The notes below the pieces were generated by a model. The model was given only the letters and a program-made list of their open reading frames with translations. It was not told where the DNA came from and made no database searches. From the IMG/VR virus record IMGVR_UViG_2718217860_000005, positions 1-16,502 of that record: DNA of 16,502 nt. One strand, given 5' to 3'. A program made the position numbers and the translations under genes. Of the stretch, positions 259 through 16,502 are shown piece after piece. This stretch comes from a virus (lineage: Duplodnaviria > Heunggongvirae > Uroviricota > Caudoviricetes). Numbering within the stretch: position 1 is the stretch's first letter; each line of letters begins with the position of its first letter.

Positions 259-267
259 TCGTCTGAC

Positions 268-300
268 AAGCCCTCGCGTTGAGGGCTTTACTGATTTTTT
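268..300 (+). terminator. probable intrinsic terminator after grxA
   Basis: 8-bp stem AAGCCCTC / GAGGGCTT (268-275, 281-288) with loop GCGTT, followed by a T-run at 295-300. The U-tract is a few nt distal to the stem, so strength is uncertain. It overlaps the ybjM stop codon on the other strand. Confidence 0.5.
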
Positions 301-665
301 CTGTGCTGTGGTTTAAACAAACTACTGATAAATAAGAAACACAGTGCCCCCAGCGCACACCAGAACACCGCGCTTAGTAACCATGCCAGCTCTTGCCAGA
401 ATGAGCGCGTCGGTGAAAAAAACAGCCGCATAATGAGCATCGAACAGGGTGCCGCCAGCATTGCGCCAAACAGAGGTTTCAGGACTTCTCTACGCTGTGA
501 AAAGAAGCTGGCGACTGCTCCAGGAAGAATGAAAAATAGCAAGCCGATTTCAGGATGCCCGGCAGCCCGAAAAGCGCCTTTCATGTGCGTCGCCAGAAAA
601 AGGCACACCACAATGAAGAGGACAAAACAGCAGATTGCCCCCGCCCAACGTTGTTTATGTTTCAC
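288..665 (-). CDS. ybjM: inner membrane protein YbjM
   Basis: 125-aa hydrophobic ORF beginning MKHKQRWAGAICCFVLF. Length and sequence match my recollection of E. coli YbjM, and grxA-ybjM-ybjL synteny is as in E. coli. Confidence 0.8.
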   Translation of the reverse strand: MKHKQRWAGAICCFVLFIVVCLFLATHMKGAFRAAGHPEIGLLFFILPGAVASFFSQRREVLKPLFGAMLAAPCSMLIMRLFFSPTRSFWQELAWLLSAVFWCALGALCFLFISSLFKPQHRKNQ

Positions 666-934
666 TCGTTCCTCCTGACACTGCGTCTATCGAACACATT
701 TTTCGCCAGTGTGGCGTTCAGTAAGATAAAGCCGCTTCGCATTCCATGCTAATATAGGCCAACGCAATTCATATAGCCGTTGATACCTAATGTGATTACA
801 CTAGTAAAATATATTGTTACTTTACTATCGTTTAGGTGCGCTGAATGAATCTGCGCCCTGAATTCTGGTAAAAAACATTATCGTAAATTACCATTTCTTT
901 CAACAGCTTACTAGTAAACAAGAAGTTAGCCTCC

Positions 935-2620
935 GTGAATATAAACGTCGCCGAATTGTTAAATGGGAATTACATTTTGTTATTATTTGTGGTCCTCGCG
1001 CTTGGGCTATGTCTCGGAAAGTTACGACTTGGTTCGATCCAACTGGGTAATTCCATTGGCGTTTTAGTCGTATCGCTGTTATTAGGCCAACAACATTTCA
1101 GCATTAACACCGATGCGCTTAATCTTGGCTTTATGCTGTTTATTTTCTGCGTCGGGGTCGAAGCCGGACCGAACTTTTTTTCCATTTTTTTTCGCGATGG
1201 GAAAAATTACCTAATGTTAGCACTGGTGATGGTTGGCAGTGCGCTGGTGATCGCCTTAGGGTTAGGTAAGCTGTTTGGCTGGGATATTGGCCTGACGGCC
1301 GGTATGTTAGCAGGCTCTATGACGTCGACACCGGTTCTGGTCGGTGCTGGCGATACACTGCGTCATTCCGGCATGGAAAGCAGGCAGCTCTCACTGGCAC
1401 TGGATAATCTGAGCCTCGGGTATGCCTTAACCTATTTAATCGGTCTGGTGAGTTTGATTGTTGGTGCGCGTTACTTGCCGAAATTGCAGCATCAGGACTT
1501 ACAGACCAGCGCCCAGCAAATCGCCCGCGAACGTGGCCTGGACACTGATGCCAACCGTAAGGTTTATTTACCGGTGATCCGCGCCTATCGCGTCGGCCCG
1601 GAGCTGGTGGCCTGGACCGACGGCAAAAATCTGCGTGAACTGGGTATTTATCGACAAACCGGCTGCTACATTGAACGTATTCGACGTAACGGGATTCTGG
1701 CAAATCCAGACGGTGATGCCGTGCTACAAATGGGCGATGAAATAGCGTTGGTAGGCTATCCCGACGCCCATGCCCGACTCGATCCCAGCTTCCGTAACGG
1801 TAAAGAAGTTTTCGATCGTGACCTTCTCGACATGCGTATCGTCACTGAAGAAGTGGTCGTTAAAAACCATAACGCTGTAGGTAAACGTCTCGCACAACTG
1901 AAGTTGACCGATCACGGTTGCTTCCTTAACCGCGTCATTCGTAGCCAGATTGAGATGCCGATAGATGACAACGTCGTGCTTAACAAAGGTGACGTTTTAC
2001 AAGTCAGCGGTGATGCCCGTCGCGTAAAAACCATCGCCGATCGCATCGGCTTTATCTCGATTCACAGCCAGGTCACTGACCTGCTGGCATTTTGCGCCTT
2101 CTTTGTTATTGGGCTGATGATCGGGATGATCACCTTCCAGTTCAGCACATTCAGTTTCGGCATGGGGAACGCTGCCGGGTTGTTATTCGCCGGAATTATG
2201 CTGGGCTTTATGCGTGCTAACCACCCGACCTTCGGTTACATTCCGCAAGGTGCATTAAGCATGGTGAAAGAGTTCGGCTTGATGGTGTTTATGGCAGGCG
2301 TTGGTCTGAGCGCCGGTAGCGGTATTAATAACGGCCTGGGCGCGATTGGCGGTCAGATGTTGATTGCCGGATTAATTGTCAGTCTTGTGCCCGTGGTTAT
2401 CTGTTTCTTGTTCGGTGCTTATGTATTGCGAATGAACCGCGCACTGTTGTTCGGCGCAATGATGGGCGCACGCACCTGCGCGCCGGCAATGGAGATCATC
2501 AGTGATACAGCTCGCAGTAACATCCCTGCGCTGGGCTATGCGGGCACCTACGCAATCGCCAACGTCCTGCTGACGCTGGCAGGGACAATCATCGTCATGG
2601 TATGGCCAGGATTAGGATAA
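935..2620 (+). CDS. ybjL: putative transporter YbjL (AAE-family permease with two internal TrkA-C-like regulatory domains)
   Basis: 561-aa ORF with a GTG start at 935 ([13 protein letters not shown]...). Hydrophobic N- and C-terminal halves flank a soluble central region. Length and sequence match E. coli YbjL as I recall it. Confidence 0.85.
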
Positions 2621-2661
2621 AACTGAAGTTGCCCTGAAAATGAAATTTTTTTGCACAACCG

Positions 2662-2690
2662 CAGAACTTTTCCGCAGGGCATCAGTCTTA
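2662..2690 (+). promoter_or_regulatory. sigma-E (RpoE) type promoter of rybB
   Basis: -35-like GAACTT at 2664-2669 (consensus GGAACTT), 16-nt spacer, -10-like TCTTA at 2686-2690 (consensus TCTGA/TCAAA), then 6 nt to the RybB 5' end at 2697. RybB is known to be sigma-E dependent. Confidence 0.6.
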
Positions 2691-2696
2691 ATTAAT

Positions 2697-2775
2697 GCCA
2701 CTGCTTTTCTTTGATGTCCCCATTTTGTGGAGCCCATCAACCCCGCCATTTCGGTTCAAGGTTGATGGGTTTTTT
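2697..2775 (+). ncRNA. rybB: RybB small regulatory RNA (sigma-E-dependent, Hfq-binding OMP regulator)
   Basis: The 79-nt stretch GCCACTGCTTTTCTTTGATGTCCCC...GGTTGATGGGTTTTTT matches the RybB sequence as I remember it, including the 5' seed. It ends in a 10-bp hairpin (CCCATCAACC 2733-2742 / GGTTGATGGG 2760-2769) plus T6 at 2770-2775. In E. coli K-12 rybB lies between rcdA (ybjK) and ybjL. Confidence 0.75.
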
Positions 2776-2855
2776 GTTGCCTAAAATTTATTCTATTTAA
2801 AATCATGAGGTTAGAAGCACTGTTTTTTAACGATGGCGACAAAATGGCGGCAGCG

Positions 2856-3074
2856 TCAAAGAGAGAGCGCCACCTGTCCTGATTTCATTGGATGCGGCTG
2901 AACCGGATTTGACTCTTTTGGCGTTGCAATCGAACGAACAAAAGTTTCATGGGTAACAAAAGTATGGCTGCAGTTAATATTCTGGCACTGGTTGTAACGC
3001 TCTTTGGTCAATGAAGATACCTGAAAACTGCTGCGAGTATGGGCGGCACTTCCACACAGTGGGCAAATCATCAT
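2856..3074 (-). CDS. ogr: Ogr/Delta-family zinc-finger late-gene transcription activator
   Basis: C-x2-C-x22-C-x4-C motif (CPLCGSAAH...KERYNQCQNINC) and clear similarity to P2 Ogr. Starting at the ATG at 3074 gives 72 aa, the same length as P2 Ogr, with a GGGGAGA Shine-Dalgarno about 9 nt upstream. The ORF track's GTG at 3107 would add 11 residues. Confidence 0.8.
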   Translation of the reverse strand: MMICPLCGSAAHTRSSFQVSSLTKERYNQCQNINCSHTFVTHETFVRSIATPKESNPVQPHPMKSGQVALSL

Positions 3075-3164
3075 TTTTCGAGTTCTCCCCATTTTTGCTA
3101 AATTCACAATAATGATACCGCATTATTCCATTTTGCAAACTTAAAAGTTCTCCATTGCGAAGAA

Positions 3165-4265
3165 TCATTCCATTTCGAAATCATCAATCCTCACTTCAAG
3201 CTCCAGACTGGTCGTAAAACCGTTATCCGGGCTGACGGTATGCGTCAGAGTCGTAATGGTCCATTCCGCATCATCTATCGGCTGTTTAAAGCCACTGACT
3301 TTCACTGGCATTTCCGTGTAGAGATCTGCCCGACCTTCCGCCAGTTGTAGCGAGAATGACGCAACGCCGCGTTGCAGGCGTTCCCACTGCATTTTCGCCG
3401 CTCGTTCGGCGTTGCTCCGGTTGGCATAAGTGCGATTAAGTACCAGCACGTTTTCATCCGTACCCACCAGGTAATCGCCCTGCTTCGCTTCCGGCTCTTT
3501 CTTCTGCTTCTTAGTCCTGCGCTTACGCTTCACCGTGGTGCTTTCTTTCTTCGAGGGTTCGCGAGTATGCAACCAGCTGGCAATTACGCCCGTGTAAGCT
3601 CCGCGATCTGCCAGGGTAAAGCGGTGACTGTCGCCGTCCTTACGTGTGATAGTGATCACCGGCAGTGGTTTACCGCTGGCACTTTTACCCTGTCCCTGTC
3701 GGATGAATAACAGATTGCCATTTTTCACTGACGCGATAGCACCGTACTGGCGCGCCAGCCGCATCAGAAAACTGCCGTCACTCTCATTAGTCTGGTCTAT
3801 ATGTTCCACGGGCTTATCCGACAGGTCATTACCCAGTGCCATCTTCAGCTTGTGACGCGCGGCTATTTCCTTGACCACTTCCCCGACAGTGGTCTTGTGC
3901 CACGACTTTTCACGGCGGGTATTCAGCGTTTCACGAAAATCAGCACTTCGCGCCCGGATAGTCAGGCGGTCCGGTGCGCCAGTGTGTTCAATCTCGTCCA
4001 CCGTGAATGCCCCTTTCGGGAAAAGCGGCTGCCCCTTCCAGCCCAGCGCCAGCGTAATGACCGCACCACGGCGCGGCAGCGCTATTTTTCCATCGGCGTC
4101 GTCCAGCTCCAGATCAAGCTGGTCCGCTTCAAAGCCCCGGTTATCCGTCAGCGTCAGCCTCATCAGGCGGTTATCCAGCACAGTGGTGATATCCCTGCCC
4201 TCAATACTGATGCTGAATGCGGGAGTTTTGTTGCCTTTGTTAAGCAGTTCAGAGCTGAAATTCAC
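3165..4265 (-). CDS. D: P2 gpD-like tail protein
   Basis: 366-aa ORF in the position of P2 gene D (between U and ogr) with matching length class. Start overlaps the U stop (ATGA). Identified by synteny and recalled similarity to gpD. Confidence 0.75.
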   Translation of the reverse strand: MNFSSELLNKGNKTPAFSISIEGRDITTVLDNRLMRLTLTDNRGFEADQLDLELDDADGKIALPRRGAVITLALGWKGQPLFPKGAFTVDEIEHTGAPDRLTIRARSADFRETLNTRREKSWHKTTVGEVVKEIAARHKLKMALGNDLSDKPVEHIDQTNESDGSFLMRLARQYGAIASVKNGNLLFIRQGQGKSASGKPLPVITITRKDGDSHRFTLADRGAYTGVIASWLHTREPSKKESTTVKRKRRTKKQKKEPEAKQGDYLVGTDENVLVLNRTYANRSNAERAAKMQWERLQRGVASFSLQLAEGRADLYTEMPVKVSGFKQPIDDAEWTITTLTHTVSPDNGFTTSLELEVRIDDFEME

Positions 4266-4747
4266 GACAGCAGCCCTCCCACCGTTTTACTGATATCACT
4301 TAAGGCAGATGTTGCCGTGTCCTGCAGATTATTCAGTTGCGTACTGAGATCACCGAACATATCGGACAGGGATTCATCCACCCGTTTGAGCGACAGGGTG
4401 AACTCAATCCGCCGCGGCATACCGTCGCGGAAAAACTCCGTTTTAGTCAGATTCAGTCCCTCAATCACATACATGCCGTAAATCGTGCCGCTGCCTTCAA
4501 TCAGGGGCCATGCTTTTCCCTGTTCTGCCATCTGCTCCAGAGCCAGCAACGACAGCCTGCCGCCCGTTATCTCCGGCATAAGAACACCAGAAAGCGTCAG
4601 CATGTCGTTGTCCGGTCCCAGAAACTGCGTGGACGGACGACGGTTTACCCGGCTGTTTGCCGCATGTCGCCAGCTGCGTTGATACTGCAGTTCCTGATAC
4701 GGAACGGTGCGCAGCATAAACACGTACAATCCCAGCACCATCATCAT
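4262..4747 (-). CDS. U: P2 gpU-like tail protein
   Basis: 161-aa ORF (P2 gpU is about 159 aa) between T and D, with ATGA overlaps at both ends. Confidence 0.75.
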   Translation of the reverse strand: MMMVLGLYVFMLRTVPYQELQYQRSWRHAANSRVNRRPSTQFLGPDNDMLTLSGVLMPEITGGRLSLLALEQMAEQGKAWPLIEGSGTIYGMYVIEGLNLTKTEFFRDGMPRRIEFTLSLKRVDESLSDMFGDLSTQLNNLQDTATSALSDISKTVGGLLS

Positions 4748-7700
4748 GCGTCGTATCCCCCCTGATCGCTGTAGTTACTCCTGGCTTTTGCCTTCAGCCT
4801 GCGTTCACGTTCATCAAGCTGGCGTGCCACCTCCCGCGCAATATCCTGCGCACTTTGTCCTGGCTGCATCTGAATGATGATCTGCGTCGGTGCCTCAATC
4901 CTGTAAACGGGCGGCACAGTGGCTGCACGACTCACCATCGCTTCGCCGCCTTTCGCGGGAAGTGCCAAAGGATGCAACGGTGGAAGCTCTGCAGGCGCGG
5001 CAGCAACGCCCATCATTCCGGCAACAACGGCAGCCAGTGCAGCTGTATTTCTCCGGCTGGTCACATTTGCCGGGCCGTTAACAATTTCCGGCCCGTTTTC
5101 ACCGACGATGCCAAACTGCCCGCGCGGGATATAGCCGCCGCTGTCATACATCCCCGCAAAGCCATATCCCCATGACGGAAAACCACCCGATGGCATCATC
5201 ACTTTACCGTTTGTATTCACCGTCGCAGGTTGCTGACGCGTCACACTTTCCGGTAGTTTCGCCTTTGCGGCCTCTTTACTGACAACGCCGAGTTTCTCCA
5301 GCAACCAGGAAACGCCGGATTTCAGGGAGTCCAGCGGATGCATGACCATATTCAGCCCTTCCGCCAGTGCCTCCCCGAATCGCCGCCCCATTGCCGCTGC
5401 ACTCTGCAGTTCGGCAGAGGTTGACTTAACGGGCGTCAGCAGATCAGTAAACCAGCCCCACAGCGCCTGTACTTTGTCGCCAATCCACTGGAACACGGGC
5501 TTAAGCGGTTCGAATGCTGCACTGACGGGACCTGCCGCCGCTTTGAATCCTTCCACCACGCCACCAAGAAATGCGGTGATGGGTTGCCAGTATTTCCAGA
5601 CAACCAGCGCCACGCCCGCCAGTGCAGTAACCACAAGACCTATCGGACTGAGCAGAGCACCTAACAGACCAGATACGGCATACAGGGCAACGCGCAGCAT
5701 CGCCAGTGGACCAGATGCCAGTACTCGCAGCACCGTGCCTGCGGCGGCCAGTCCACCACGCAGTACCGCCAGAGGATTCATAAACATCACAGCAACAGCA
5801 CGTAAACCGGATAATCCAGACCGCAAAAGTGCAACCGGCGCACCTGCTACAGTTTTCAGGACATTTCCCGTCAGTGATGCCGTGCGGCGCAAAGACGACA
5901 ACGGCGCAGTAAGTAAACCCGCAGCGTGGCCCGATGAAGCAAGCCCGCGTCGCAGCAGTGCCAGTGGTGCGCCAGCCAGCCAGGACAACGCGCTGCTGGT
6001 TCGAGTTACTGCTGCCGTAACGGAAGGTAACGTTTTGATACCCAGCACAGAGAACCCCAGACGGATCACTGCCAGCGGCCCCAGCACTGCAGCTAACACC
6101 ACCGCTAAGGTGCCGAGGCCCACGGTAACCGCAGCCACAACAGCCGCCGCTTTCATCAGTGTGCCCGTCAGTTCCGGGTTAGCTTCCACCCAGCGACGCA
6201 ACGCCCCCGTGACGCTTTTCACCGTGAACAGAATATCCATCAGCGGCTGGCGCAGCGTTTCGCCCAGGCTGCTGAAGGTGTTCTGCGCTCCGGTTTTGAC
6301 CAGCAACCACTGAGCAGAAAGTGAGTCTTTGTTGATGTCGGATTCTTTCTGCATGGAGCCGAGCGCATCATTGCCCGCTGTCAGTTTTAGCTGGCGCTGC
6401 AGTTCCGGCAGGTTGTTTGCCAGTTTCGCCGCGTCATCGCCAAACTCTTTACCAAACAACATGGTCATGGCAGACAGGCGCTTATCCTGCGGCAGCGCGT
6501 TCACCTTCTCCAGCACGCGCTGGATGGTTCCCATCGCATCCTTCGTCATCTGCTTTTCAATCACTTCAGGATTGAGTTTCAGCAGATTCATCCCTTCAAA
6601 GAAACTCTTGCTCTGCATGGTGGCAATGGACAATTCACGCACCATCGCGTTTGCTGCACTGGCTGCAACCTCTGGCGCAGCGCCCAGTGTCAGGAAGGTG
6701 GAACCCAGCGCCGCCGCTTTACGATAATCCAGACGATCAGCCACACCGCCCAGGCGTTGCATGACATCAATGATGTCTGCCCCTTTCGACATGGCGTTAT
6801 CATCCAGATAGTTCAGCGCATCACCGAGCTGTTCAATATTGCGGGTAGGGATTTTGTAGAGCTGGGCGATTTTCCCCAGACTTTCTGACAGTTCATCCGC
6901 TGGCAGCTCAAAGGCTGTTGCCGCCTTTGCTGCCGTACTGGCTAAGGCCAGCAGGTCACGTTTCTGGTCCTCCCAGCTGTCGTCAGGGTTTGCAACGTTC
7001 ATACGCGCACCACCTTCAACCAGTGCAGCGAAGTCCACCGCACCGTTTTCCATCGGCAACTGTTCGCTGGCAGCTTTGATGGCATCCTGCATTTCATAAA
7101 AACGTGCAGTGCGGTTGCCATTATCGTCACGCAGACCATTGACCTGCTTTGCCACACCTTTCATGGCATCTTCCATGCTGGTATAGCTTTTTACTGCCGC
7201 CATCACTGGCGTCCCCATTGCCAGCCCTGCCGCCGTGGTGGTGGCTCCGGTTCCTGCGATGCGATCGCGCACCTCCAGCGAACGGGCATAACTGGCACGC
7301 GCTGCATTCATCCTGCGCTGAGCTTCCCCCAGTCGCTTCAGCCGCGCCTCCTGTTTCGACAGTTCCTGGTTATAACGTGATGTTTCACGGGCTAAACGGG
7401 CAGTTGCTCCCGCATCATCTTTCGCAGAAATTCCCGCCCGGTACAGTTCTGCACGCACAAGCGCCGTTTGCTTCTGCAAATATTTTTGTTGTTCTTCCAG
7501 GCGTTGGACTGCCAGTGTTTGCCGACCTAAAGCCACAAGGTGCCGTTGTGATGGTTGTTCCATCGCTTCCAGCTCAGAACTAAGCAAATTTGCCTTCTGT
7601 CTGGCATAGTTCAGCCTGTCGCCTAACTTTTTGTTATCGGCCTGCAGCTTGCGAAATTTTTCCAGGCTGTTACCCGCCTGATTGAGTTGCTTTAATGCGT

Positions 7701-7821
7701 CACGGGAGTTTCTGATTGCGCCAGCCAGCTCTTTCGAACTGGCCTGTGCAGCACGGAATGGGCGGGTGAGTTTGTCAACCGCATTAAGAATGACCTGCAG
7801 GCGCAGGTTATTATCACTCAT
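4744..7821 (-). CDS. T: tail tape measure protein (gpT-like)
   Basis: 1025-aa ORF directly after E/E'. The N-terminal third is coiled-coil-like (repeated Q/E/K/L/R heptad-like stretches) and the central region is very Ala/Gly/Leu-rich and hydrophobic, as is typical of tape measure proteins. It starts MSDNNLR, overlapping the E' stop. Confidence 0.85.
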   Translation of the reverse strand: MSDNNLRLQVILNAVDKLTRPFRAAQASSKELAGAIRNSRDALKQLNQAGNSLEKFRKLQADNKKLGDRLNYARQKANLLSSELEAMEQPSQRHLVALGRQTLAVQRLEEQQKYLQKQTALVRAELYRAGISAKDDAGATARLARETSRYNQELSKQEARLKRLGEAQRRMNAARASYARSLEVRDRIAGTGATTTAAGLAMGTPVMAAVKSYTSMEDAMKGVAKQVNGLRDDNGNRTARFYEMQDAIKAASEQLPMENGAVDFAALVEGGARMNVANPDDSWEDQKRDLLALASTAAKAATAFELPADELSESLGKIAQLYKIPTRNIEQLGDALNYLDDNAMSKGADIIDVMQRLGGVADRLDYRKAAALGSTFLTLGAAPEVAASAANAMVRELSIATMQSKSFFEGMNLLKLNPEVIEKQMTKDAMGTIQRVLEKVNALPQDKRLSAMTMLFGKEFGDDAAKLANNLPELQRQLKLTAGNDALGSMQKESDINKDSLSAQWLLVKTGAQNTFSSLGETLRQPLMDILFTVKSVTGALRRWVEANPELTGTLMKAAAVVAAVTVGLGTLAVVLAAVLGPLAVIRLGFSVLGIKTLPSVTAAVTRTSSALSWLAGAPLALLRRGLASSGHAAGLLTAPLSSLRRTASLTGNVLKTVAGAPVALLRSGLSGLRAVAVMFMNPLAVLRGGLAAAGTVLRVLASGPLAMLRVALYAVSGLLGALLSPIGLVVTALAGVALVVWKYWQPITAFLGGVVEGFKAAAGPVSAAFEPLKPVFQWIGDKVQALWGWFTDLLTPVKSTSAELQSAAAMGRRFGEALAEGLNMVMHPLDSLKSGVSWLLEKLGVVSKEAAKAKLPESVTRQQPATVNTNGKVMMPSGGFPSWGYGFAGMYDSGGYIPRGQFGIVGENGPEIVNGPANVTSRRNTAALAAVVAGMMGVAAAPAELPPLHPLALPAKGGEAMVSRAATVPPVYRIEAPTQIIIQMQPGQSAQDIAREVARQLDERERRLKAKARSNYSDQGGYDA

Positions 7822-8250
7822 CGTTAGCCCCGCTTCTCTGAATCGCTTTATACCGCCATTCCAGCACTTCGGTCAGCGGCATAACGTCAGTAACGGATGG
7901 CGGCCAGTGAAAGATGGTGGCGATATCAGCCACCAGATCGTCAACCGTCAGGCTGTCGGTAAACCGGCAAGCACCGACTTCTTCAACAAAAAAGTGACAA
8001 CCTCAACCGACATAGCGGTGAGATCTGCCGGGTCCATCTCTGCAATTTCCTGTGCAGTCAGTGCCGGGCTGGAGATGCGGGGGATCACGGTCATCATCGC
8101 GTTCACATCCATATCCATAATGGCCTGCAGGCGTGTACCGCGCAGTGCACCAGACTGCGGTTTACGCAGCACAATTTCGGTGATTTCCGTTTTACCGCGC
8201 TTGATAGGGGTATCCAGTTGAATAGTCTTTTCAGTCTGCTTATCGCTCAT
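7814..8250 (-). CDS. tail assembly chaperone E+E' fusion (programmed -1 frameshift product)
   Basis: Hand translation: the E frame reads ...ACT TTT TTG (T86 F87 L88). After a -1 slip on T TTT TTG (minus strand, 7993-7987) the new frame continues GTT GAA GAA GTC GGT ... for about 54 codons to a TGA at 7816-7814. The predicted fusion is about 142 aa, the size of P2 gpE+E', and ends just inside the T start region. Confidence 0.7.
7948..8250 (-). CDS. E: tail assembly chaperone gpE (zero-frame product)
   Basis: 100-aa ORF with an N-terminus resembling P2 gpE (TIQLDTPIKRGKTEITEIVLRKP...). It is preceded by an AGGA Shine-Dalgarno and contains the slippery heptamer near its 3' end. Confidence 0.8.
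   Translation of the reverse strand: MSDKQTEKTIQLDTPIKRGKTEITEIVLRKPQSGALRGTRLQAIMDMDVNAMMTVIPRISSPALTAQEIAEMDPADLTAMSVEVVTFLLKKSVLAGLPTA
7987..7993 (-). other. -1 programmed ribosomal frameshift slippery heptamer T-TTT-TTG
   Basis: Plus-strand CAAAAAA at 7987-7993 is TTTTTTG on the coding (minus) strand, in X-XXY-YYZ register with the E frame. The same heptamer is used in the P2 E/E' frameshift. Confidence 0.7.
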
Positions 8251-8275
8251 TTTGTTGTCCTGTAAATTGGGTTCT

Positions 8276-8293
8276 GGCGCGGAATCCCGCGCC
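8276..8293 (-). other. GC-only hairpin in the FII-E intergenic spacer
   Basis: GGCGCGG-AATC-CCGCGCC (7-bp stem) lies between the FII stop (8305) and the E start (8250). No U-tract follows on the transcribed strand, so it is more likely an RNA stability or attenuation element than a full terminator. Confidence 0.4.
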
Positions 8294-8304
8294 GTTCAGA
8301 TACA

Positions 8305-8820
8305 TCAGAGGCCGAGGGCGTTGCGGTGCGCTTCCATCAGGTCCACACCGTCCACAATTTCCACCATGTTGATAAGGTCCACTTCATAGAGCACCTCACC
8401 ATTGATAGTCAGCTTCGCGTAGCTGTTGGTACTGGTCACTTTGGTGGTGTTGCTTTCGCCCGTCTTCCACTCACCGGAATCCACTTCTTTGTGACGTCCG
8501 CGCACCACAAGCTCCACGGCCTGCACTTCCCCGGTATCGTCACGCTGGATAGAGCCGGTAAAGCGCAACTGGATACCATCCACCGTGGCTTTGCCCATCT
8601 GCTTAAACAGCAGCAGTTCAGTACCACCAATGGAAAATTCCGTATCCAGTGCGCCGTCATCCAGCCCCAGATCAACATCCACTGCACCCGGCATTCCGCC
8701 GCCGCGATACTTCTCATATTTGCGGGTGAATTTCGGCAGCGTCAGCGACTCAACGATCCCCTGCCAGTTGTTCCCGTCATTAAACAGGTTCAGGTGTTTT
8801 AATTTGCGTGGTAAAGCCAT
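8305..8820 (-). CDS. FII: tail tube protein (gpFII-like)
   Basis: 171-aa ORF (P2 FII is about 172 aa) 9 nt downstream of the sheath gene, in the order sheath-tube-E/E'-tape measure. Confidence 0.85.
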   Translation of the reverse strand: MALPRKLKHLNLFNDGNNWQGIVESLTLPKFTRKYEKYRGGGMPGAVDVDLGLDDGALDTEFSIGGTELLLFKQMGKATVDGIQLRFTGSIQRDDTGEVQAVELVVRGRHKEVDSGEWKTGESNTTKVTSTNSYAKLTINGEVLYEVDLINMVEIVDGVDLMEAHRNALGL

Positions 8821-8829
8821 GTTGTCCCC

Positions 8830-10002
8830 TTACGCGCTGACCTGGCTGGAGAAATTCACCAGGTACTGATCGGTGATGCGCTGACGCAGCATCAGGTTTT
8901 CAAGTGGCGGCACTGGTGTGTAGTCGTAGTCGATGGTGAGTTTTCCAGCTTTCAGAGTGTCTTTGTCGTTCACCGACTCATCCAGCCAGCAATCGCCACC
9001 AATGAGATAGCCCTGACTGATCAGGCTGCGCATTTTGGCGCGGATACCTTCGATAATGTCGCGGGCCAGCGACGGATTCAGCGGTTTGTCGACAGCCCAC
9101 ATTGGCGCTTCTGCCATCGTGTCCATCAGCACCTGCGCCGTGCGGGTGTTGTTTTCGAAGGCAAAGAGTGGGTCATCACTCAGACAGCGGGAACCCCAGA
9201 AGCGAAAGCCGTCTTTGCGGATAAGTGTGGTAACATCGTTCTGGTTAAGCAGTCCCGCATCAGTTGCCGGGTCCTGCAGATCCCAGAACACATCAGCAGA
9301 AATTCCAGTGACACCGTTCACGCCCACGTTGGACAGGCTTTTGTGCCACCCTGTCTGCTCATCAATTTTGGCACGCAGACCAAGCGCACGGGCGGTGGCA
9401 TATGCCGTTGCGTCGGCATTCAGCACCGTGTCCCAACCAGTAAAGTCAGGCCAAATCAGCATCCCTTCACGCTGACTGAAGTTTTCACGGTAAGTGATCG
9501 CCTCCTGCACCGTCTTGCAGCCATACGCTGACAGGTAAGCAAACCCACGCAGGCTTTGCGCCACGCCCAGCAACTCAGTAGCAACGGCTTTATTATCGTG
9601 CCCCGGCACGCCGAGGATGCGCGGTTTAACACCGAGCTGTGACTGGGCAGATAACAGGGCTTTCATACCAGTTTTTTTACCTTCAGCAGTCACTGCGCCG
9701 ATGATATTGGTCGTGGTTTCTTCTTCCGTTTCACCCTGCGGCACACGCACAACAACGGTCACGGGTTTTGCCTGGTCAGCGATGGCATCCAGCGAGCGGG
9801 CCAGCGTACCGGATTCACCCGCCTTACCGCTGGCAGTAAGCACATCAGTGATTAGCACGGGTTTATTAAGAGGGAACATTTTTGCATCGGCATCATCGCC
9901 CGTGCAGACCATGCCCACGATGGCGGTGCTCACCGTGGTAATGGATCGAGTGCCTTCGTTGACTTCAACAACGCGCACTCCGTGGTGGTAATCCTGAGCC
10001 AT
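8830..10002 (-). CDS. FI: contractile tail sheath protein (gpFI-like)
   Basis: 390-aa ORF (P2 FI is about 396 aa) with a strong AGGAGG Shine-Dalgarno about 9 nt upstream. It is the first gene after the intergenic region carrying the late-promoter dyad. Confidence 0.85.
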
Positions 10003-10078
10003 AGTGGCGAACCTCCTGATTGGATTAGGCTTCGCCCTATGTTGAAGTGATTGTGTCTGACAAGCAGCTAAGCGCAGT

Positions 10079-10096
10079 TGTACCGTTATTCACACA
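10079..10096 (-). promoter_or_regulatory. Ogr-type late promoter element (PF-like), TGT-N12-ACA dyad
   Basis: The coding strand reads TGT-GTGAATAACGGT-ACA. Its centre is about 85 bp upstream of the FI ATG, compatible with a dyad centred near -55 and a leader of about 30 nt, as described for P2 late promoters. Confidence 0.55.
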
Positions 10097-10108
10097 AAAT
10101 GACGGTAT

Positions 10109-10522
10109 TTATCTGCTTGCAGGGAAAACAGGCCAAATAATATCAGGTGCGGTGCTGGTATCTGTTGCCGTCACAGCCTCGATATAATCCAGCACAACGT
10201 TAAGTCGGGTAGTTTCCTCTTGCGTCAGTTTGCGCCCGGCCTGCAGCTTTAACTGAATCACGCTGATATTGACCATTGCTGCGTCTATCAACGACTGTTT
10301 TTTCTGTTCAGCGTCAGCTACCAGTTCATCATGAGAACGTTCCGGAGTGGGTGGTGCAGTAAATACCCCGTCTGAATACGCCCAGCCGATTCCGGGCTGC
10401 TCACTGATATCAGAAATATTAATGAGCTGCAGATTATCCGGCACAGTGAATTCATCCTCGCCATCCCAGACAATGACATTCACAACCATCCCATTTTCAA
10501 TAACTGCATATGACGCATTCAT
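10109..10522 (-). CDS. tail fiber assembly chaperone (Tfa / gpG-like)
   Basis: The C-terminal motif DTSTAPDIIWPVFP matches the conserved Tfa C-terminus (lambda Tfa has ...VDTSTAPDIEWP...). The ATG at 10522-10520 shares its A with the TAA stop of the fiber gene (TAATG coupling). The ORF track's upstream start at 10546 would overlap the fiber C-terminus. Confidence 0.75.
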   Translation of the reverse strand: MNASYAVIENGMVVNVIVWDGEDEFTVPDNLQLINISDISEQPGIGWAYSDGVFTAPPTPERSHDELVADAEQKKQSLIDAAMVNISVIQLKLQAGRKLTQEETTRLNVVLDYIEAVTATDTSTAPDIIWPVFPASR

Positions 10523-12441
10523 TATGCAAACTCCTCGATAATACAAACCCCATCAGCACCTTTCCCGCCCGTCATACTGGTTCCGCTATAACCTGCATCG
10601 TATGCACCACCTCCGCCTGAACCAAATGCCCTGCCTCTAACGCCACCGCCAGCGCCTGCGCGTCCACCGCCACCCCAGTACGATGTTCCGCCTTCACCGC
10701 TGACGCCGATATTTCCGGACTGACCGTCGCCTCCATCTCCACCAGTGATGCGGATATCGCCAGTACTCGGCACACCTCCGTTACCGCCGTTTGTGTTTGT
10801 AACACCCACTTTCCCGCCACCTTCGCCACCAGGAGCAATTAACGATGCGAATACGCTATTCCCGCCCCTGGTGCCGTTCGTTGCACTAACACCACCGGCC
10901 CCACCTGCGCCGATAGTGACTGGATAACTATTCTGTGTCGGGGTCATTATTGAAATTATTGTTCCACCGGCCCCACCGCCAGCACCGAAAAACGTTTCAT
11001 TATTGGATGTAGCCTTGCAGCCGCCCCCTCCGCCACCGCCGCCCGTTATTGTGACCCTGATCCGTTTTGTTTCTGGTGATGGGGTATACGTACCTGATGA
11101 CGCGAAAGCCCGGGTACTCAGCCGGCGTCCCACGTATCCGCTTGTATCTCCCAAACCAAGATAACGAATAACCTCCTGTTTGCTTGTTTTAGCCAGAATA
11201 TCCCGTCCAACATTAGTCAGGGTTGTCAGGCTGGCTGTATCATTCCCCGTAAAATACGGTAGTTTGTCTGCCGCAGTGGCAAGGCCTGCCAGTGCGGTCA
11301 GTGTGGCGTCGGCAGGTTGTTTTCCATTGGCAAGGTCATATACAGCCTTCACAGCTTTTGGTGTGGCAGCCTGCGTTTCTGACGTGCTGTTAGTGGCGCT
11401 GCTGAGTTGCACGGTACCTTTTACCGTCAGTGAAGCTGCAGGCACATCCGTTATCTGGCTCCACGGGTGCGTGTGACTGACAGGTGCCTTACCTGCTGCA
11501 AGGTCATATGCCGCCTTCACTGCCTTTGGTGTGGCAGCCTGCGTTTCTGACGTGCTGTTAGTGGCGCTGCTGAGTTGCACGGTGCCTTTTACCGTCAGTG
11601 AAGCTGCAGGCACATCCGTTATCTGATTCCACGGGTGTGTGTGACTGACAGGTGCCTTACCTGCTGCAAGGTCATATACAGCCTTCACTGCCTTTGGAGT
11701 GGCAGCCTGCGTTTCTGATGTGCTGTTAGTGGCGCTGCTGAGTTGCACGGTGCCTTTTACCGTCAGCGAGGCTGCAGGTACACCTGTTATCTGATTCCAC
11801 GGGTGTGTGTGACTGGCGGATGCTTTACCTGCTGCAAGATCATATGCAGCCTTCACAGCCTTCGGTGTTGCGGCCAGTATTTCGGATTCACTGTTGGTCG
11901 CACTGCTTAACTGAGTAAAACCTTTTGCGGTCAGCGAGGCGTCCGGGTGACGTCGTGACTGTTCGTGCTCTGATATTTTGTCATCCACATACTTGCGGGT
12001 TGCCAGCACTACAGCAGGGTCGATTTTCAGGATGATATTGTCCGTACTGCTGGTAATCAGCACCATGCGCACGGTCTGGGTACGCCCACTGCCTTCAGCC
12101 AGTTGCGGCTTATAGCTTTCCGGGCAGTTACCCACGGCAATCAATGCCCCGGACTCATCAAACAAGCCCACTTCACGTATCCACCAACCGCCCTCGTTTT
12201 CAGGGATCACCTGTTCAGCAATAATCTGGCTGCTGTTCTGCGGGTCGATATAAAGCATATTCAGCGCAGCCCGGCGTTTCTCATTTACCAGTGCCGTCTG
12301 CTTTGCGTCCGGCGTTGGCAATACTCCGCCGCCATCGCCCACCGCCATATGGGTAATTTTTAGCGGCACACCGAGCGCGGCGGCGCTGGCAAGTTTCGCC
12401 GCGCCAATATCCGTCAGCAGGGTATAAAATTTTGTGCTCAT
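10522..12441 (-). CDS. H: tail fiber protein (gpH-like N-terminus, phage fiber repeats, glycine-rich C-terminal domain)
   Basis: 639 aa. The N-terminal approx. 165 aa resemble the P2 gpH baseplate-attachment region (MAVGDGGG, SYKPQLAEGSGR, HEQSRRHPDASLTAKGFTQLSSATNS). Then come 3.7 tandem 56-aa repeats of the SSATNSTSETQAATPKAVK type, and the last approx. 175 aa are roughly one-third glycine. Confidence 0.85.
   Translation of the reverse strand: MSTKFYTLLTDIGAAKLASAAALGVPLKITHMAVGDGGGVLPTPDAKQTALVNEKRRAALNMLYIDPQNSSQIIAEQVIPENEGGWWIREVGLFDESGALIAVGNCPESYKPQLAEGSGRTQTVRMVLITSSTDNIILKIDPAVVLATRKYVDDKISEHEQSRRHPDASLTAKGFTQLSSATNSESEILAATPKAVKAAYDLAAGKASASHTHPWNQITGVPAASLTVKGTVQLSSATNSTSETQAATPKAVKAVYDLAAGKAPVSHTHPWNQITDVPAASLTVKGTVQLSSATNSTSETQAATPKAVKAAYDLAAGKAPVSHTHPWSQITDVPAASLTVKGTVQLSSATNSTSETQAATPKAVKAVYDLANGKQPADATLTALAGLATAADKLPYFTGNDTASLTTLTNVGRDILAKTSKQEVIRYLGLGDTSGYVGRRLSTRAFASSGTYTPSPETKRIRVTITGGGGGGGGCKATSNNETFFGAGGGAGGTIISIMTPTQNSYPVTIGAGGAGGVSATNGTRGGNSVFASLIAPGGEGGGKVGVTNTNGGNGGVPSTGDIRITGGDGGDGQSGNIGVSGEGGTSYWGGGGRAGAGGGVRGRAFGSGGGGAYDAGYSGTSMTGGKGADGVCIIEEFA
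11326..11940 (-). repeat. in-frame tandem repeat array, 168-bp period, about 3.7 copies, inside the tail fiber gene
   Basis: CAGGTGCCTT recurs at 11481 and 11649, a 168-bp offset, and the blocks 11470-11640 and 11640-11810 are near-identical. Protein copies cover residues 168-223 (diverged), 224-279, 280-335 and 336-372 (partial). Confidence 0.85.
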
Positions 12442-13043
12442 GGATTCACTCTCATTGTGTCAATAACATGGACCGCCCCGCCTTCATGCGCGGTGCCACC
12501 GGAAATAATCGTTTCGTTGATATACGGATAGATCGTGATTTCTTCGCCAAGATAGCTGGCGGCTCCCACCCAATGCGGGCCGCTGGTCTGCAGATTGATG
12601 GACATGCCGATCATGTGGCGGCTACATGGTTTGGCATCGCTTATCAGTCGCTCAAGTTCCAGATAGGTATCTTCAGTGATACCCTGGTCCTGCACGCCGA
12701 TATCCAGGCGAAACGTGCCCGGTGCCTCTCCGGTCTGCCACCACTCAATAATGCGGATCAGAAAGCCGAACGGCTCCACCACCCGCCGCACGGCACTGGT
12801 GGTCCCTTTATGCTGATGAATATAAAAAGCATCCTTCACCACCTGGCGCTTGACGCTTTCTGTCCAGCCCTCGTCCCAGCGATCTACAGAGAACGCCCAG
12901 GCGAGATAAGGCAGGAAACTGACCGGACAGGTTGCCGGATTCCACAAGTCACGAAGCGGCACCTGCAGATCAGAAATCCCGCTGCAGGTTTGCGCCAGTC
13001 GGCGCTCCAGTGGTGTTGAACCCGGTGGCAGCAGACTATTCAT
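12438..13043 (-). CDS. I: baseplate assembly protein (gpI-like)
   Basis: 201-aa ORF. The motifs RDLWNPATCP and LPYLAWAFSVDRWDEGW align with P2 gpI as I recall it. Overlaps the J stop and the H start (ATGA). Confidence 0.8.
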   Translation of the reverse strand: MNSLLPPGSTPLERRLAQTCSGISDLQVPLRDLWNPATCPVSFLPYLAWAFSVDRWDEGWTESVKRQVVKDAFYIHQHKGTTSAVRRVVEPFGFLIRIIEWWQTGEAPGTFRLDIGVQDQGITEDTYLELERLISDAKPCSRHMIGMSINLQTSGPHWVGAASYLGEEITIYPYINETIISGGTAHEGGAVHVIDTMRVNP

Positions 13044-13944
13044 CCGTTCCTCCGTTGGTTACGCTCCACTGCGTACATGATGCCGCCTGTGTTTTGTTCA
13101 GGACCACATCCTCCAGAGGAGAAGCCAGCTCCACACGCTGCACACCCTCAACATGCAGGGCGGCAAAGATGGCGCTACGGCGAATATCCCGACCAAGACG
13201 CGTCTGACTGGCGATGTACTTCTGCAGGCTGGCTTTTGCCGCTGCCATTACCGGCTCTGCTTCCGGTCCAGGATAGAGAAAAATGGTGGCTTCCACGCGA
13301 TACGGGATGATTTCTGCGCTGCGAACCGTAAGACGGTCAGCCACCGGGCGGACGTTCTCACTGTTCAGAGCTTTTTCCACCACGTCCAGCAGGTCTTTTT
13401 CTGCAGTTCCGTCGCCTTCGCGGCTAAGGACAGTCAGCACCACCTCTGCAGGTGCCGGGCTGGTTGCACTGGCATCCGCCACCCGACCGTCGGCGCTTCG
13501 GGCATGAAATTCATAAGCTGCAGTTGGCCCCGCAACTGAAAGCCCTTCAAAGGCTGCAGGCACACGCAGGCGTAACGCTTCATCGCTTTCCATCACAGCT
13601 GCAACGGGCGGCACAGCGTCATTATCAGCAGGCGTCACCGTCAGGCGTTTCACGTTGTAGTTGGCAGCGAGCTGGTCAAGATCGCTGCCCATCGCGTAAG
13701 CCACCATCACAGCCTGCGCGGCTTCGTTAATGCGCTGGCGCAGAAGCAACTCACGGTAAGCGTTCTCCTGCAGCAATTTGGTGACGGGTTCAGATTCCAG
13801 TTCCAGCGTGCGGATCACTGCTTCCTGCTCATCTTTCGGATGAAGCGCAACAAATCCGGCCTTGCGTTCGGCAAGCAGCGTCTCAAAGTCCGGCACATCC
13901 ACAATCTGCGGCGCAGGCAACTGCGAAAGGTCAATCACTGCCAT
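13036..13944 (-). CDS. J: baseplate assembly protein (gpJ-like)
   Basis: The N-terminus from the internal Met (MAVIDLSQLPAPQIVDV...) aligns with the P2 gpJ start, so I place the start at 13944, giving 302 aa as in P2. The ORF track's 13983 start adds 13 residues that overlap W. Confidence 0.8.
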   Translation of the reverse strand: MAVIDLSQLPAPQIVDVPDFETLLAERKAGFVALHPKDEQEAVIRTLELESEPVTKLLQENAYRELLLRQRINEAAQAVMVAYAMGSDLDQLAANYNVKRLTVTPADNDAVPPVAAVMESDEALRLRVPAAFEGLSVAGPTAAYEFHARSADGRVADASATSPAPAEVVLTVLSREGDGTAEKDLLDVVEKALNSENVRPVADRLTVRSAEIIPYRVEATIFLYPGPEAEPVMAAAKASLQKYIASQTRLGRDIRRSAIFAALHVEGVQRVELASPLEDVVLNKTQAASCTQWSVTNGGTDE

Positions 13945-14290
13945 TCTCTGCTCCTGTTGATACTGAAAGGGACACAGGCACACCGTTATTCCGCCGCCCG
14001 GTCAGCTCCACCACCATTGAACCGTCAAAATTGCTGTTAATAGTGATGGAATCCAGCGTCAGCCGTGGCTCCCAGCGACTCAGTGCCACATACACAGCCG
14101 ACATAACCTGCAGGCGTAACGCCGGATTTTGTGGCTGATCTATCAGTGCCGACAGCAGGGAACCATATTCCCGACGGGCAATGCGGCTACCCTGCGGCGT
14201 CAGCAGAATGTCCCGCACCGACTGGCGCAGATGGTCAATATCAGTAATGGCTTTACCGTTGGTATTGTTCATCCCGCTATAAAGCGTCAT
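13931..14290 (-). CDS. W: baseplate wedge protein (gpW-like, T4 gp25 family)
   Basis: 119-aa ORF between V and J (P2 gpW is about 115 aa), with the lysozyme-like gp25-family pattern (LLTPQGSRIARREYGS). ATGA overlap with V. Confidence 0.8.
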   Translation of the reverse strand: MTLYSGMNNTNGKAITDIDHLRQSVRDILLTPQGSRIARREYGSLLSALIDQPQNPALRLQVMSAVYVALSRWEPRLTLDSITINSNFDGSMVVELTGRRNNGVPVSLSVSTGAENGSD

Positions 14291-14865
14291 ACCGGGCCTC
14301 CGGTTGTGTCGCCGCCTTTCAGGACGCCAGTATGCTGATGCGCATCAACCACGATCCCGTTAGAACTCATTGCTCCGCCGCCCTGGGTAACGCCACCATT
14401 GATCACCACTTCGCTGTTAATGCGCGTGCGGTCAGCCTCCAGTACAAACTCACTGGTTTTCATGGTGATGTTGTCAGCGGCCTCAATGACCATTGATTTG
14501 ATGCCCCTGACATACCAGCGCCCGGTGGCGGGTTCATATTCAAACCAGCCACCGTCCGGGTATTCCGTCACGTTGCCGTCCTCAGAGCCTGAAGGTGGCG
14601 GAAACTGGTTTGAGTAGACCGCAGGCAGGGCAAACGCGGTTTCCAGATTGCCGCCAAGGCTGAACAGCACAACCTGCTCACCCACAGACGGTTTCCACCA
14701 GGTGCGCGATTTGCCCGCGCGCAGTGTCAGCCAGTTAATCCAGTTGGTTTCGAGGTCGCCAGTTTTCACCCGACACAGCCAGTTTGCCCTGTCCACTTCG
14801 GTGACTACACCTGTGCGGATCAGGTTGGTGATAAGGCGCATGATTTCGGTTAATTGTGCGTTCAT
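14287..14865 (-). CDS. V: baseplate spike/hub protein (gpV-like)
   Basis: 192-aa ORF. The N-terminus (NLIRTGVVTEVD...) and the C-terminal HQHTG...GGDTTGGPV region align with P2 gpV. It is the first gene of the V-W-J-I-H-tfa block. Confidence 0.8.
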   Translation of the reverse strand: MNAQLTEIMRLITNLIRTGVVTEVDRANWLCRVKTGDLETNWINWLTLRAGKSRTWWKPSVGEQVVLFSLGGNLETAFALPAVYSNQFPPPSGSEDGNVTEYPDGGWFEYEPATGRWYVRGIKSMVIEAADNITMKTSEFVLEADRTRINSEVVINGGVTQGGGAMSSNGIVVDAHQHTGVLKGGDTTGGPV

Positions 14866-14911
14866 AGGGAAAGGTTGCCATCAATAGCAAGCAGTAGACA
14901 GCCTTTGTAAT

Positions 14912-14929
14912 TGTATTAGACATAGAACA
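14912..14929 (-). promoter_or_regulatory. candidate Ogr-type late promoter element (PV-like), TGT-N12-ACA dyad
   Basis: TGT-TCTATGTCTAAT-ACA on the coding strand. The centre is only about 55 bp upstream of the V ATG, which would imply a very short or absent leader, so this call is tentative. Confidence 0.4.
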
Positions 14930-15085
14930 AATGCCTTTCAATGGTCTGCGTTAGAGCATTAATACGTTGCAAAAGGTCGAATGACGTTGCGCAAGTTAAG
15001 AAGTTCAATGCTCTTAAAAAAGCACTTGAAAGCAACGCCTTTAATTATTAAAAGCCAATTAATTTAGGCGGTTACTATGTTATCT

Positions 15086-15120
15086 TTGACACAAAAGATG
15101 TTTATTGACAATATATAAGT
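15086..15120 (+). promoter_or_regulatory. candidate sigma-70 promoter region for the DUF262 gene
   Basis: Two TTGACA hexamers (15086-15091 and 15105-15110) and an AT-rich TATATAAG stretch (15112-15119) lie 25-60 bp upstream of the ATG at 15144. The exact -35/-10 pairing is ambiguous. Confidence 0.4.
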
Positions 15121-15143
15121 TCAATCTAACAAGGAGAAAAATT

Positions 15144-16502
15144 ATGCCAAATGAAAATCTTGATATTGACTCAAGGACTACCGAGCAATTATACGAATGG
15201 TATTTGCAAGGAAATTTGATAGTCAATAGACGTTATCAAAGGAAACTTGTATGGTCTCTAGAAGAAAAGACTTCTTTAATATCTTCTATGCTGCAACAAT
15301 ATCCTATTCCGTTATTATTATTTGTTACCATCAATGAACAAAGAGAAATATTGGATGGAATGCAAAGATTAGAAGCAATTATGAGCTTCATCGAACAGAG
15401 ATTTTCATTAGATGGACAATATTTTGATTTGGACTCTATAGCTTTAACAAAACAACTTAAAGATAATGGAACTTTAATTCAGAAAGAACCAATCCTTTCC
15501 CGTGATTCTTCAGCAATTATTGCACGTTATCGATTTGCAATATCAGAATATAGCTCCACAAATGAAAATATTGACGAAGTATTCAGACGAATAAACTCAA
15601 ACGGGAAGATTTTATCCAAACAAGAATTACGTAGTGCAGGAACAGTTAGTAACTTCTCTGAACTGGTCAGATCGATATCAACATCGATCAGAGGTGATAC
15701 TAGCCATTCTGACATTATGAATCTCCAGCAAATGCACAAAATTTCAATCAGTAACGATAGATTGGAGTACGGGGTAAATATCGATAACCACTTTTATATA
15801 AAACATCATATTTTAACAAGACGAAGTATTCGTGATTCTGATGACGAGGAATTGATAGCCAATATCCTTGCATATATCAGTCTAGAAGAAAAACCCACAT
15901 CTGGGTCAACTTCTCTCGACACATTCTATGGTCAAGGAAACTCCTCTCATGCTCATGGTGTCAGACAGCAATTAGAGTCTTTCATTCAAACCAATAACGC
16001 TGCCACTATTAAGCAGAATTTCATAGCTGTATATGAATTAATTACAAGCCTATATGACGGAAAAAATGATACTTTTAGAAGCCATATTTTAGGGGAGGAT
16101 AATTCATCTCAAGAATGCCCTCGTTATTATCAAGCTGTGTTTTTGTCTATTTATGAACTTCTTTTCAACCAAAATATGCAATTAATTGATAAAGAAGGTT
16201 TATTCTCGCAATTAAAAAACACTGGCAATACCATAATTATGGTTACCGATGGTGGCCGCTGGGCTGCAAGCACTCGTGAAAAAAGTGTTAATGATCTTGT
16301 TGCATTAATAAGTCGTTACTTCCAACCTGCTCCTCAAAAGTATGTGAATCATGCTTGGGTAACTGAAATTCGCAATCTATTAACAAATTCTAGGGAAGGT
16401 GCGAATAAGCGGGGAAATTCTTCTCGGCTGACTCAGTCATTTCATTTCTTCATGTTTGAGCCGATTTTTTCTCCCGTAAATGCCTTGAATCAGCCTATTT
16501 AG
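15144..16502 (+). CDS. DUF262 / ParB-like (DGQHR-type) domain protein with an uncharacterised C-terminal half; candidate defence or restriction-like protein
   Basis: 452-aa ORF with an AAGGAG Shine-Dalgarno at 15131-15136 and a TAG stop at 16500-16502. N-terminal motifs RYQRKLVW, QQYPIP, DGMQR and FRRINSNGKIL fit the DUF262 signature. The sequence is AT-rich (about 35% GC in a hand-counted 60-nt sample) against about 60% in the tail genes. The ORF track's TTG at 15105 is an upstream alternative start that I discount. Confidence 0.65.
   Translation: MPNENLDIDSRTTEQLYEWYLQGNLIVNRRYQRKLVWSLEEKTSLISSMLQQYPIPLLLFVTINEQREILDGMQRLEAIMSFIEQRFSLDGQYFDLDSIALTKQLKDNGTLIQKEPILSRDSSAIIARYRFAISEYSSTNENIDEVFRRINSNGKILSKQELRSAGTVSNFSELVRSISTSIRGDTSHSDIMNLQQMHKISISNDRLEYGVNIDNHFYIKHHILTRRSIRDSDDEELIANILAYISLEEKPTSGSTSLDTFYGQGNSSHAHGVRQQLESFIQTNNAATIKQNFIAVYELITSLYDGKNDTFRSHILGEDNSSQECPRYYQAVFLSIYELLFNQNMQLIDKEGLFSQLKNTGNTIIMVTDGGRWAASTREKSVNDLVALISRYFQPAPQKYVNHAWVTEIRNLLTNSREGANKRGNSSRLTQSFHFFMFEPIFSPVNALNQPI

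Follow-up and report, generated by a model that had tools for sequence, protein, structure and literature searches.

A P2-like tail module beside an IS-interrupted DUF262-Schlafen gene is very probably the left part of a prophage in the rybB 3' end

We examined a 16,502-nt stretch of viral DNA (Caudoviricetes; positions 1 to 16,502 of IMG/VR record IMGVR_UViG_2718217860_000005), here called the window, in which a P2-like tail module lies next to a divergent gene of foreign composition. Positions 2779-16502 very probably represent the left part of an approximately 33-kb P2-like (Peduoviridae) prophage inserted in the 3' end of rybB, in which the orf30 slot between genes S and V is occupied by a DUF262-Schlafen gene that an insertion sequence (IS) has broken. 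The S, R, lysis, head, replication and integration genes would follow this cargo gene, outside the window, and they appear to be absent because the window ends inside the cargo region. An earlier note on this DNA had offered two explanations for their absence: a moron inserted at a non-canonical site of a full prophage, or a head-less remnant or tailocin-like cassette. Coordinates are window positions unless a locus (L001, L002 and so on) is named, gene calls come from Pfam searches and proteins were compared with those of P2 by BLASTP.

Relatives continue into lysis, head and integration genes

Nine complete Escherichia coli genomes are approximately 100% identical to the window over positions 1-16393. 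The foreign gene of EC-JS426 is a coding sequence of 1,776 bp, directly followed by S, R, lysC/lysB, the endolysin, the holin, X, L, M, N, O, P and Q. Past Q come a small cargo region, the replication gene A, dam, a cII/CI switch and the integrase, and then the host gene rcdA. The 19.1 kb from S to attR are contiguous, with 100% coverage and 99.9-100% identity, in 9/9 of the near-identical genomes, and the same 19.1 kb are also kept in two strains with an IS1 in the cargo gene. This cargo is present in 28 of 5,426 complete E. coli genomes, and the full V-cargo-S stretch is likewise found in 28. A look-up of the identical V protein, which occurs both with and without this cargo, yielded ten contexts, and in all ten V is preceded by S, R, lysis and head genes. 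No related locus that we examined is tail-only, that is, without capsid, terminase, portal, replication and integrase genes nearby.

The earlier note had proposed that canonical S, R, lysis and head genes beyond the DUF262 gene would make this a simple moron insertion, and that is the arrangement in every carrier. Its moron in a full prophage thus holds as far as the canonical S, R, lysis and head genes that follow the cargo in relatives are concerned, but the site is not a non-canonical one, since it corresponds to the orf30 locus of P2. Its head-less remnant or tailocin-like cassette finds no support in any of the relatives, as heads are kept in all loci examined.

One version of a head-less element takes the window's own right end into account. 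The window stops within an IS5-family element, and this element could be the breakpoint of a deletion or inversion in which the S-to-integrase half was lost, leaving an Ogr-controlled, tail-only cassette beside rybB. A fully intact tail module would be compatible with such an event, and we found no public sequence with this junction. Nevertheless, S, R, lysis and head genes are kept in 28/28 cargo genomes, 11/11 nearest relatives and 10/10 contigs with the identical V, and an independent IS1 event in the cargo gene was a plain insertion that left the remainder of the prophage intact. Known tailocin loci, moreover, have their own lysis and regulatory genes, and none are visible on the ogr side of the module, which abuts attL and rybB. 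R-type tailocins (e.g. R-pyocins) share the P2-type contractile tail gene set, but their loci are devoid of capsid, terminase, replication and integrase genes, all of which are present in every relative examined; the element here also has phage attachment (att) sites. We consider this loss of half the prophage highly improbable, and a tailocin reading of the tail module is not supported. If the loss did occur, the tail-only cassette could be an early stage of tailocin domestication.

The prophage lies in the terminator of rybB

The window begins with the E. coli core genes grxA, ybjM and ybjL, which are followed by an intact rybB small RNA gene on the plus strand (2700-2778; Rfam RF00110, 105.3 bits, full length, 1-79/79). 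The last 14 nt of rybB, its terminator tail, are ATGGGTTTTTTGTT (2765-2778), which form the attL core and the left prophage boundary. In EC-JS426, a second copy of ATGGGTTTTTTGTT lies at L001 37406-37419, beyond the integrase-side genes, and the K-12 flank resumes there. The K-12 flanks match on both sides of the prophage, and in K-12 itself rybB stands alone between ybjL and rcdA, at a site without a prophage. The prophage is approximately 33.3 kb long in relatives. These boundaries suggest that the phage integrates in the rybB terminator and regenerates the rybB 3' end, with rybB staying intact because the prophage brings a replacement terminator. In the literature collection that was searched, no paper describes rybB as an att site of P2-like phages.

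Two further stretches of the EC-JS426 locus carry candidate cargo. Unannotated small genes, one with a weak 2TM-effector match, lie between the portal gene Q and the replication gene A (L001 26819-28664), and the interval between the integrase and attR holds a 240-aa gene that weakly matches HEPN (L001 36610-37332). Both positions have been reported as hotspots in P2.

An established cargo site lies between S and V

The ATG of V (14865) and that of the divergent gene (15144) are separated by a 278-bp spacer of 34% GC (14866-15143), in agreement with the roughly 280 bp of AT-rich spacer and the divergent foreign gene described in the earlier note. This divergent control region holds PV, the late promoter of the V operon, and presumably the cargo promoter. 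The same note had placed S directly before V in P2, which the P2 record (AF063097) contradicts: between S and V are the tO terminator, the nonessential orf30 on the opposite strand and the PV activator site. P2 orf30 has 34% GC in a 50% GC genome and the same relative strand as the window cargo, which for its part has 33-35% GC versus 55% in the tail module and lies opposite to S and V. P2 and the window thus share an arrangement of S, a terminator, an opposite-strand foreign gene of approximately 34% GC, PV and V. They differ in the gene itself, a 591-aa DUF262-Schlafen protein in the window's case versus the 261-aa Orf30 of P2, for which neither Pfam nor PADLOC gives a match. Horizontally transferred genes of P2-like phages are usually found at three loci, namely the TO region, the Z/fun region and orf30 (Lynch et al., 2010, PMC3091744), and a 2026 survey reports defence hotspots inside the P2 tail genes (PMC13586616).

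Among E. coli prophages whose V and S genes are related, a sample of 55, evenly spaced down the ranking, reveals how variable this slot is. V and S are 68 bp apart, leaving the slot empty, in 33/55, and the slot is occupied in the other 22. These 22 occupied slots hold about 10 types of cargo, including DUF6216, TIR, SIR2 and AIPR proteins, P-loop NTPases, a Sll1717-type ATPase, hypothetical proteins and DUF262-Schlafen. The S and V homologues of phage 186 (U32222, Eganvirus) are 69 bp apart; 186 has the P2-type tail and lysis order, and a CI/CII-type immunity region like that of the complete relatives, but differs from the window in lacking S-V cargo, the majority state of the sampled prophages. 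We conclude that the interval between S and V is no anomaly but a known cargo site, often with defence-type genes. This polymorphic site is empty in 186 and most relatives, holds orf30 in P2 and holds the DUF262-Schlafen gene here.

Comparison of empty and filled slots also bears on how cargo is exchanged. The two states share sequence only from approximately 20 bp before the V ATG (window 14866-14929 compared with L015 9933-10000). The PV dyad, of the form TGT-N12-ACA, reads TGTATCAGCACTGATACA in the empty slot and TGTTCTATGTCTAATACA in the filled slot (14912-14929 in the window), and both end exactly 46 nt before the V ATG. Its centre is at -55 in the empty slot, in the filled slot and in the annotated P2 PV site. 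Different dyads at an identical distance therefore suggest that cargo exchange swaps the late promoter and keeps its geometry. On the S side, a hairpin followed by a T-run, read by eye, lies between S and the cargo and probably terminates both of the convergent transcripts.

The slot also varies among prophages that resemble this one closely. A prophage at the rybB site of NZ_CP024141.1 has a tail module that is 98% identical and a different gene, of 250 aa, in the S-V slot (L002 16306-17058). For this 250-aa gene, Pfam and NCBIfam give no match and PADLOC none that is significant; NCBIfam likewise has no model for the window cargo or P2 Orf30.

The cargo encodes a DUF262-Schlafen protein

The window contains the first 416 complete codons, plus 2 nt of codon 417, of the cargo gene (15144-16393, plus strand, 35% GC), whose intact allele (for example WP_001132405.1 of EC-JS426) encodes a 591-aa DUF262-Schlafen protein of the pSlfn7 type. 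In the intact protein, Pfam places GmrSD_N/DUF262 (PF03235, 1.7e-17, also matched by the window copy) at residues 26-165 and SLFN_AlbA_2 at residues 419-575. An architecture of 590-600 aa is kept from Enterobacteriaceae to Vibrio, Pseudomonas and cyanobacteria, with both Pfam domains in most homologues. An Enterobacter homologue (89% identical) occupies the same V-S slot of P2-like prophages, and a Pseudomonas homologue (40% identical) is a stand-alone chromosomal gene. Among 39 homologues, down to 37% identity, NRxYQR (28-33), DGMQR (71-75), E419, D424 and K426 are invariant. The last three residues form an Ex4DxK motif (TEQPSYDFK), and Ex4(E/D)xK is the catalytic signature of prokaryotic Schlafen nucleases (PMC13056530).

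Structural comparisons assign the two halves in the same way. The C-terminal domain matches the AlbA_2 domain of SAMD9 (11.1), DIP2311 (10.0), SLFN12 (8.8), SLFN11 (7.9) and SLFN5 (7.8), and the N-terminal domain matches BrxU (9.3), SspE (8.0) and ParB-like proteins (about 6-7). Foldseek is consistent with these matches, with weak whole-chain scores. According to Perez Taboada et al. (Nat Microbiol 2026, PMC13056530), 1.8% of the prokaryotic Schlafens are DUF262-Slfn fusions, and one such fusion, EcoSlfn7 of E. coli UC4224, lowers the plating of a broad range of phages, that of T7 by 538-fold. Cleavage of tRNA has been demonstrated for RorSlfn5, a related Schlafen. The intact cargo would thus combine an N-terminal DUF262/ParB-like module, which may act as a sensor, as that study proposes in general for Schlafen-fused domains, with a C-terminal Schlafen nuclease that would presumably cleave tRNA upon infection. 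The likeness to EcoSlfn7/pSlfn7 is one of architecture and motifs: both are single-gene E. coli systems on mobile elements with DUF262 and an Ex4(E/D)xK Schlafen nuclease, but the window copy differs in being cut by an IS before the nuclease domain.

RefSeq/PGAP names the cargo 'GmrSD restriction endonuclease domain-containing protein', which raises the question of whether it could be a type IV restriction enzyme of the classic GmrSD kind, cutting modified phage DNA (e.g. DNA with glucosylated hydroxymethylcytosine, glucosyl-hmC). Besides the name, the Pfam GmrSD_N match at residues 26-165 and the proximity of BrxU and SspE to the N-terminal module in structural comparisons point in this direction, and the cargo shares with GmrSD, BrxU and SspE the N-terminal DUF262 module and its invariant DGMQR. 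The C-terminal half argues otherwise. Pfam finds no match to the DUF1524 (His-Me/HNH) nuclease domain anywhere in the 591-aa protein, in contrast to the C-terminal DUF1524 HNH nuclease of those enzymes; the effector is instead a Schlafen/AlbA_2 domain, with an invariant Ex4DxK motif and a fold like that of the SAMD9, SLFN12, SLFN11 and SLFN5 nuclease domains. The PADLOC models NsnA and PD-T4-2_A, too, match only the N-terminal DUF262 part. It is very unlikely that the cargo is such an enzyme, and the classic GmrSD assignment was rejected on the absence of DUF1524.

E. coli plasmids carry a diverged allele of the gene, with 69% nucleotide identity, at 821 places (e.g. NZ_CP060753.1 4289-5896), which makes it far commoner than the prophage allele and its 28 genomes. 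Strain UC4224 was not among the 60 matches listed in the lower-stringency search that revealed this plasmid allele. In deposited phage genomes, the cargo has no megablast match, and its tblastn matches are partial and limited to DUF262, all below 80% coverage of the protein.

The cargo gene has been interrupted by insertion sequences

The window departs from the intact cargo allele at 16393/16394, directly after CTAG, and the remaining 109 nt (16394-16502) are the terminus of an IS5-family (ISKpn26-like) element, with the terminal sequence GGAAGGTGCGAA; its transposase gene and its other end fall beyond the window. IS5-family elements prefer YTAR targets, which the CTAG at the insertion point fits. 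The 109-nt tail occurs at 8,222 places in 1,735 E. coli genomes, where it adjoins a gene annotated as 'IS5-like element ISKpn26 family transposase'. The insertion cuts the cargo in codon 417, two codons before E419, so that 416 native residues are left; the truncated open reading frame (ORF) gains 36 IS-encoded codons and a TAG stop that ends at the last base of the window, and the Schlafen domain is fully severed from it. As the cut precedes the Ex4DxK motif by two codons, the defence gene is almost certainly inactive in this genome, with the tail module untouched. The foreign gene upstream of V that the earlier note recorded is accordingly present and divergent, but it is not intact.

The same cargo gene carries an independent IS1 insertion near codon 167 (window position 15645) in two complete genomes, NZ_CP031134.1 (L005 881-3433) and NZ_CP195467.1, and in one draft (L021). 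A single defence gene has thus been knocked out twice, once by IS1 and once by an IS5-family element, in prophages that are otherwise intact. A 2026 survey reports defence pseudogenes to be rare in P2-like phages.

The junction between cargo and IS5-family element is absent from 5,426 complete E. coli genomes, from the contigs of GTDB representative genomes and from JGI metagenome contigs. No record of the truncated cargo-IS fusion protein was found, and none of the ten contexts of the identical V protein has the IS5-family insertion.

The tail module is intact

Positions 2856-14865 hold thirteen minus-strand ORFs that correspond, in ascending order, to ogr, D, U, T, E/E', FII, FI, G, H, I, J, W and V. 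Their Pfam E-values range from 1e-13 to 1e-72, the module has 55% GC and its proteins are 41-67% identical to their P2 orthologues, in identical order. All thirteen ORFs are free of internal stops, and 8/12 of the junctions between them overlap by 1-14 nt.

From the V end, the first six genes are V, the baseplate spike (14287-14865; Phage_base_V, 1.3e-17, plus an Apex motif); W (13931-14290; GPW_gp25, 1.5e-13); J (13036-13944; Baseplate_J, 4.1e-24; 65% identity to P2 J); I (12438-13043; Tail_P2_I, 7.3e-55); H, the 639-aa tail fibre (10522-12441; Phage_tail_fib, 8.7e-64, and Phage_fiber_2, 7.5e-72); and a tail fibre assembly gene in the position of P2 G (10109-10522; Caudo_TAP, 1.4e-20). They are followed by FI, the tail sheath (8830-10002; Phage_sheath_1 and related domains; 67% identity to P2 FI); FII, the tail tube (8305-8820; Phage_tube, 6.1e-60); the tail assembly chaperone genes E and E+E' (7814-8250; Phage_TAC_7, 1e-18; sequence read directly); T, the 1025-aa tape measure (4744-7821; PhageMin_Tail, 8.7e-18); U (4262-4747; Phage_P2_GpU, 9.5e-44); and D, the tail/baseplate hub (3165-4265; Phage_GPD, 1.4e-27; 55% identity to P2 gpD). 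The module ends with an ogr-type late-gene activator, a 72-aa zinc finger protein (2856-3074; Ogr_Delta, 6.7e-22; 51% identity to P2 Ogr).

Gene E contains a slippery T_TTT_TTG heptamer (7993-7987) in its own frame, which stops at 7948. The -1 frame runs on without a stop as far as a TGA (7816-7814) overlapping the T start. PGAP labels the E' part as a GpE family protein. The gap between G and FI, the Z/fun slot, measures exactly 106 bp and holds no cargo; a TGT-N12-ACA dyad at 10079-10096, found by pattern search, is the candidate late promoter of the F operon, and an equivalent activator site is annotated in P2. Window-wide, 7 TGT-N12-ACA matches were observed versus 4.7 expected, a number not significant by itself, and the candidate promoter dyads draw their weight only from position and conserved spacing. 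The tail genes make up the usual pair of late operons, V-W-J-I-H-G and FI-FII-E/E'-T-U-D. By analogy with P2 biology, the Ogr zinc-finger activator would turn on both through TGT-N12-ACA dyads centred at -55, and the tail products would be made through translational coupling and the -1 frameshift in E. What the earlier note had said of this module, namely contiguous minus-strand tail genes and ogr without internal stops, conserved translational coupling, an intact programmed frameshift and an empty G-FI cargo site of about 106 bp with the late promoter, is borne out on each count.

Two loci with the identical V and the same cargo have a resolvase/invertase and alternative tail-fibre/chaperone cassettes in the G-FI slot (L019 14011-16003 and L020 13838-18160).

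Compared with P2, the window has the same gene order (V-W-J-I-H-G / FI-FII-E-E'-T-U-D-ogr-att), the same TTTTTTG frameshift site in E/E' and the same TGT-N12-ACA activator dyads, the one at PV having its centre 55 nt ahead of the V start. The differences are that its proteins are only 41-67% identical, that its G homologue has no match to P2 G, that its Z/fun slot is empty (106 bp), that the early region of its relatives is 186-like (CI/CII/Fil) and that integration is at rybB.

An intact tail module does not by itself imply an active phage. The prophage could be cryptic, that is, non-inducible or non-plaquing, with a tail module that persists only because it is recent or because selection acts on a role other than virion production. 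This copy has already been struck by an IS, and one relative has an additional ISL3-like element within the prophage. Yet all tail ORFs are intact, coupling and frameshift signals included, and near-identical copies are found in unrelated hosts and countries. The same V allele, moreover, is found with different cargo and different tail fibres, which therefore points to ongoing phage-type recombination. We regard a cryptic state as unlikely, although it deserves more credence than either the loss of half the prophage or a classic GmrSD enzyme.

Discussion

The continuation of near-identical genomes into canonical S-to-attR genes, the position of the left boundary in rybB and the occupancy of the S-V slot in P2 and in related prophages together make a P2-like prophage with filled orf30 slot the very probable source of positions 2779-16502. 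Several points weigh against this reading or parts of it. We infer the completeness of this particular copy from its relatives, as the view ends inside the IS. A consensus scan of the cargo flanks yielded no strong sigma-70 promoter for the cargo, with counts no higher than the shuffled expectation. Phage defence by this allele is suggested by architecture, motifs and genomic position, and the EcoSlfn7 that was tested could equally be the plasmid allele rather than the prophage allele.

For phage biology the consequence is small, as the genes are laid out as in the textbook P2, with cargo in the orf30 slot. For annotation, the RefSeq name 'GmrSD restriction endonuclease' misdescribes what is a DUF262-Schlafen protein, a member of a class that has only recently been shown to defend against phages.

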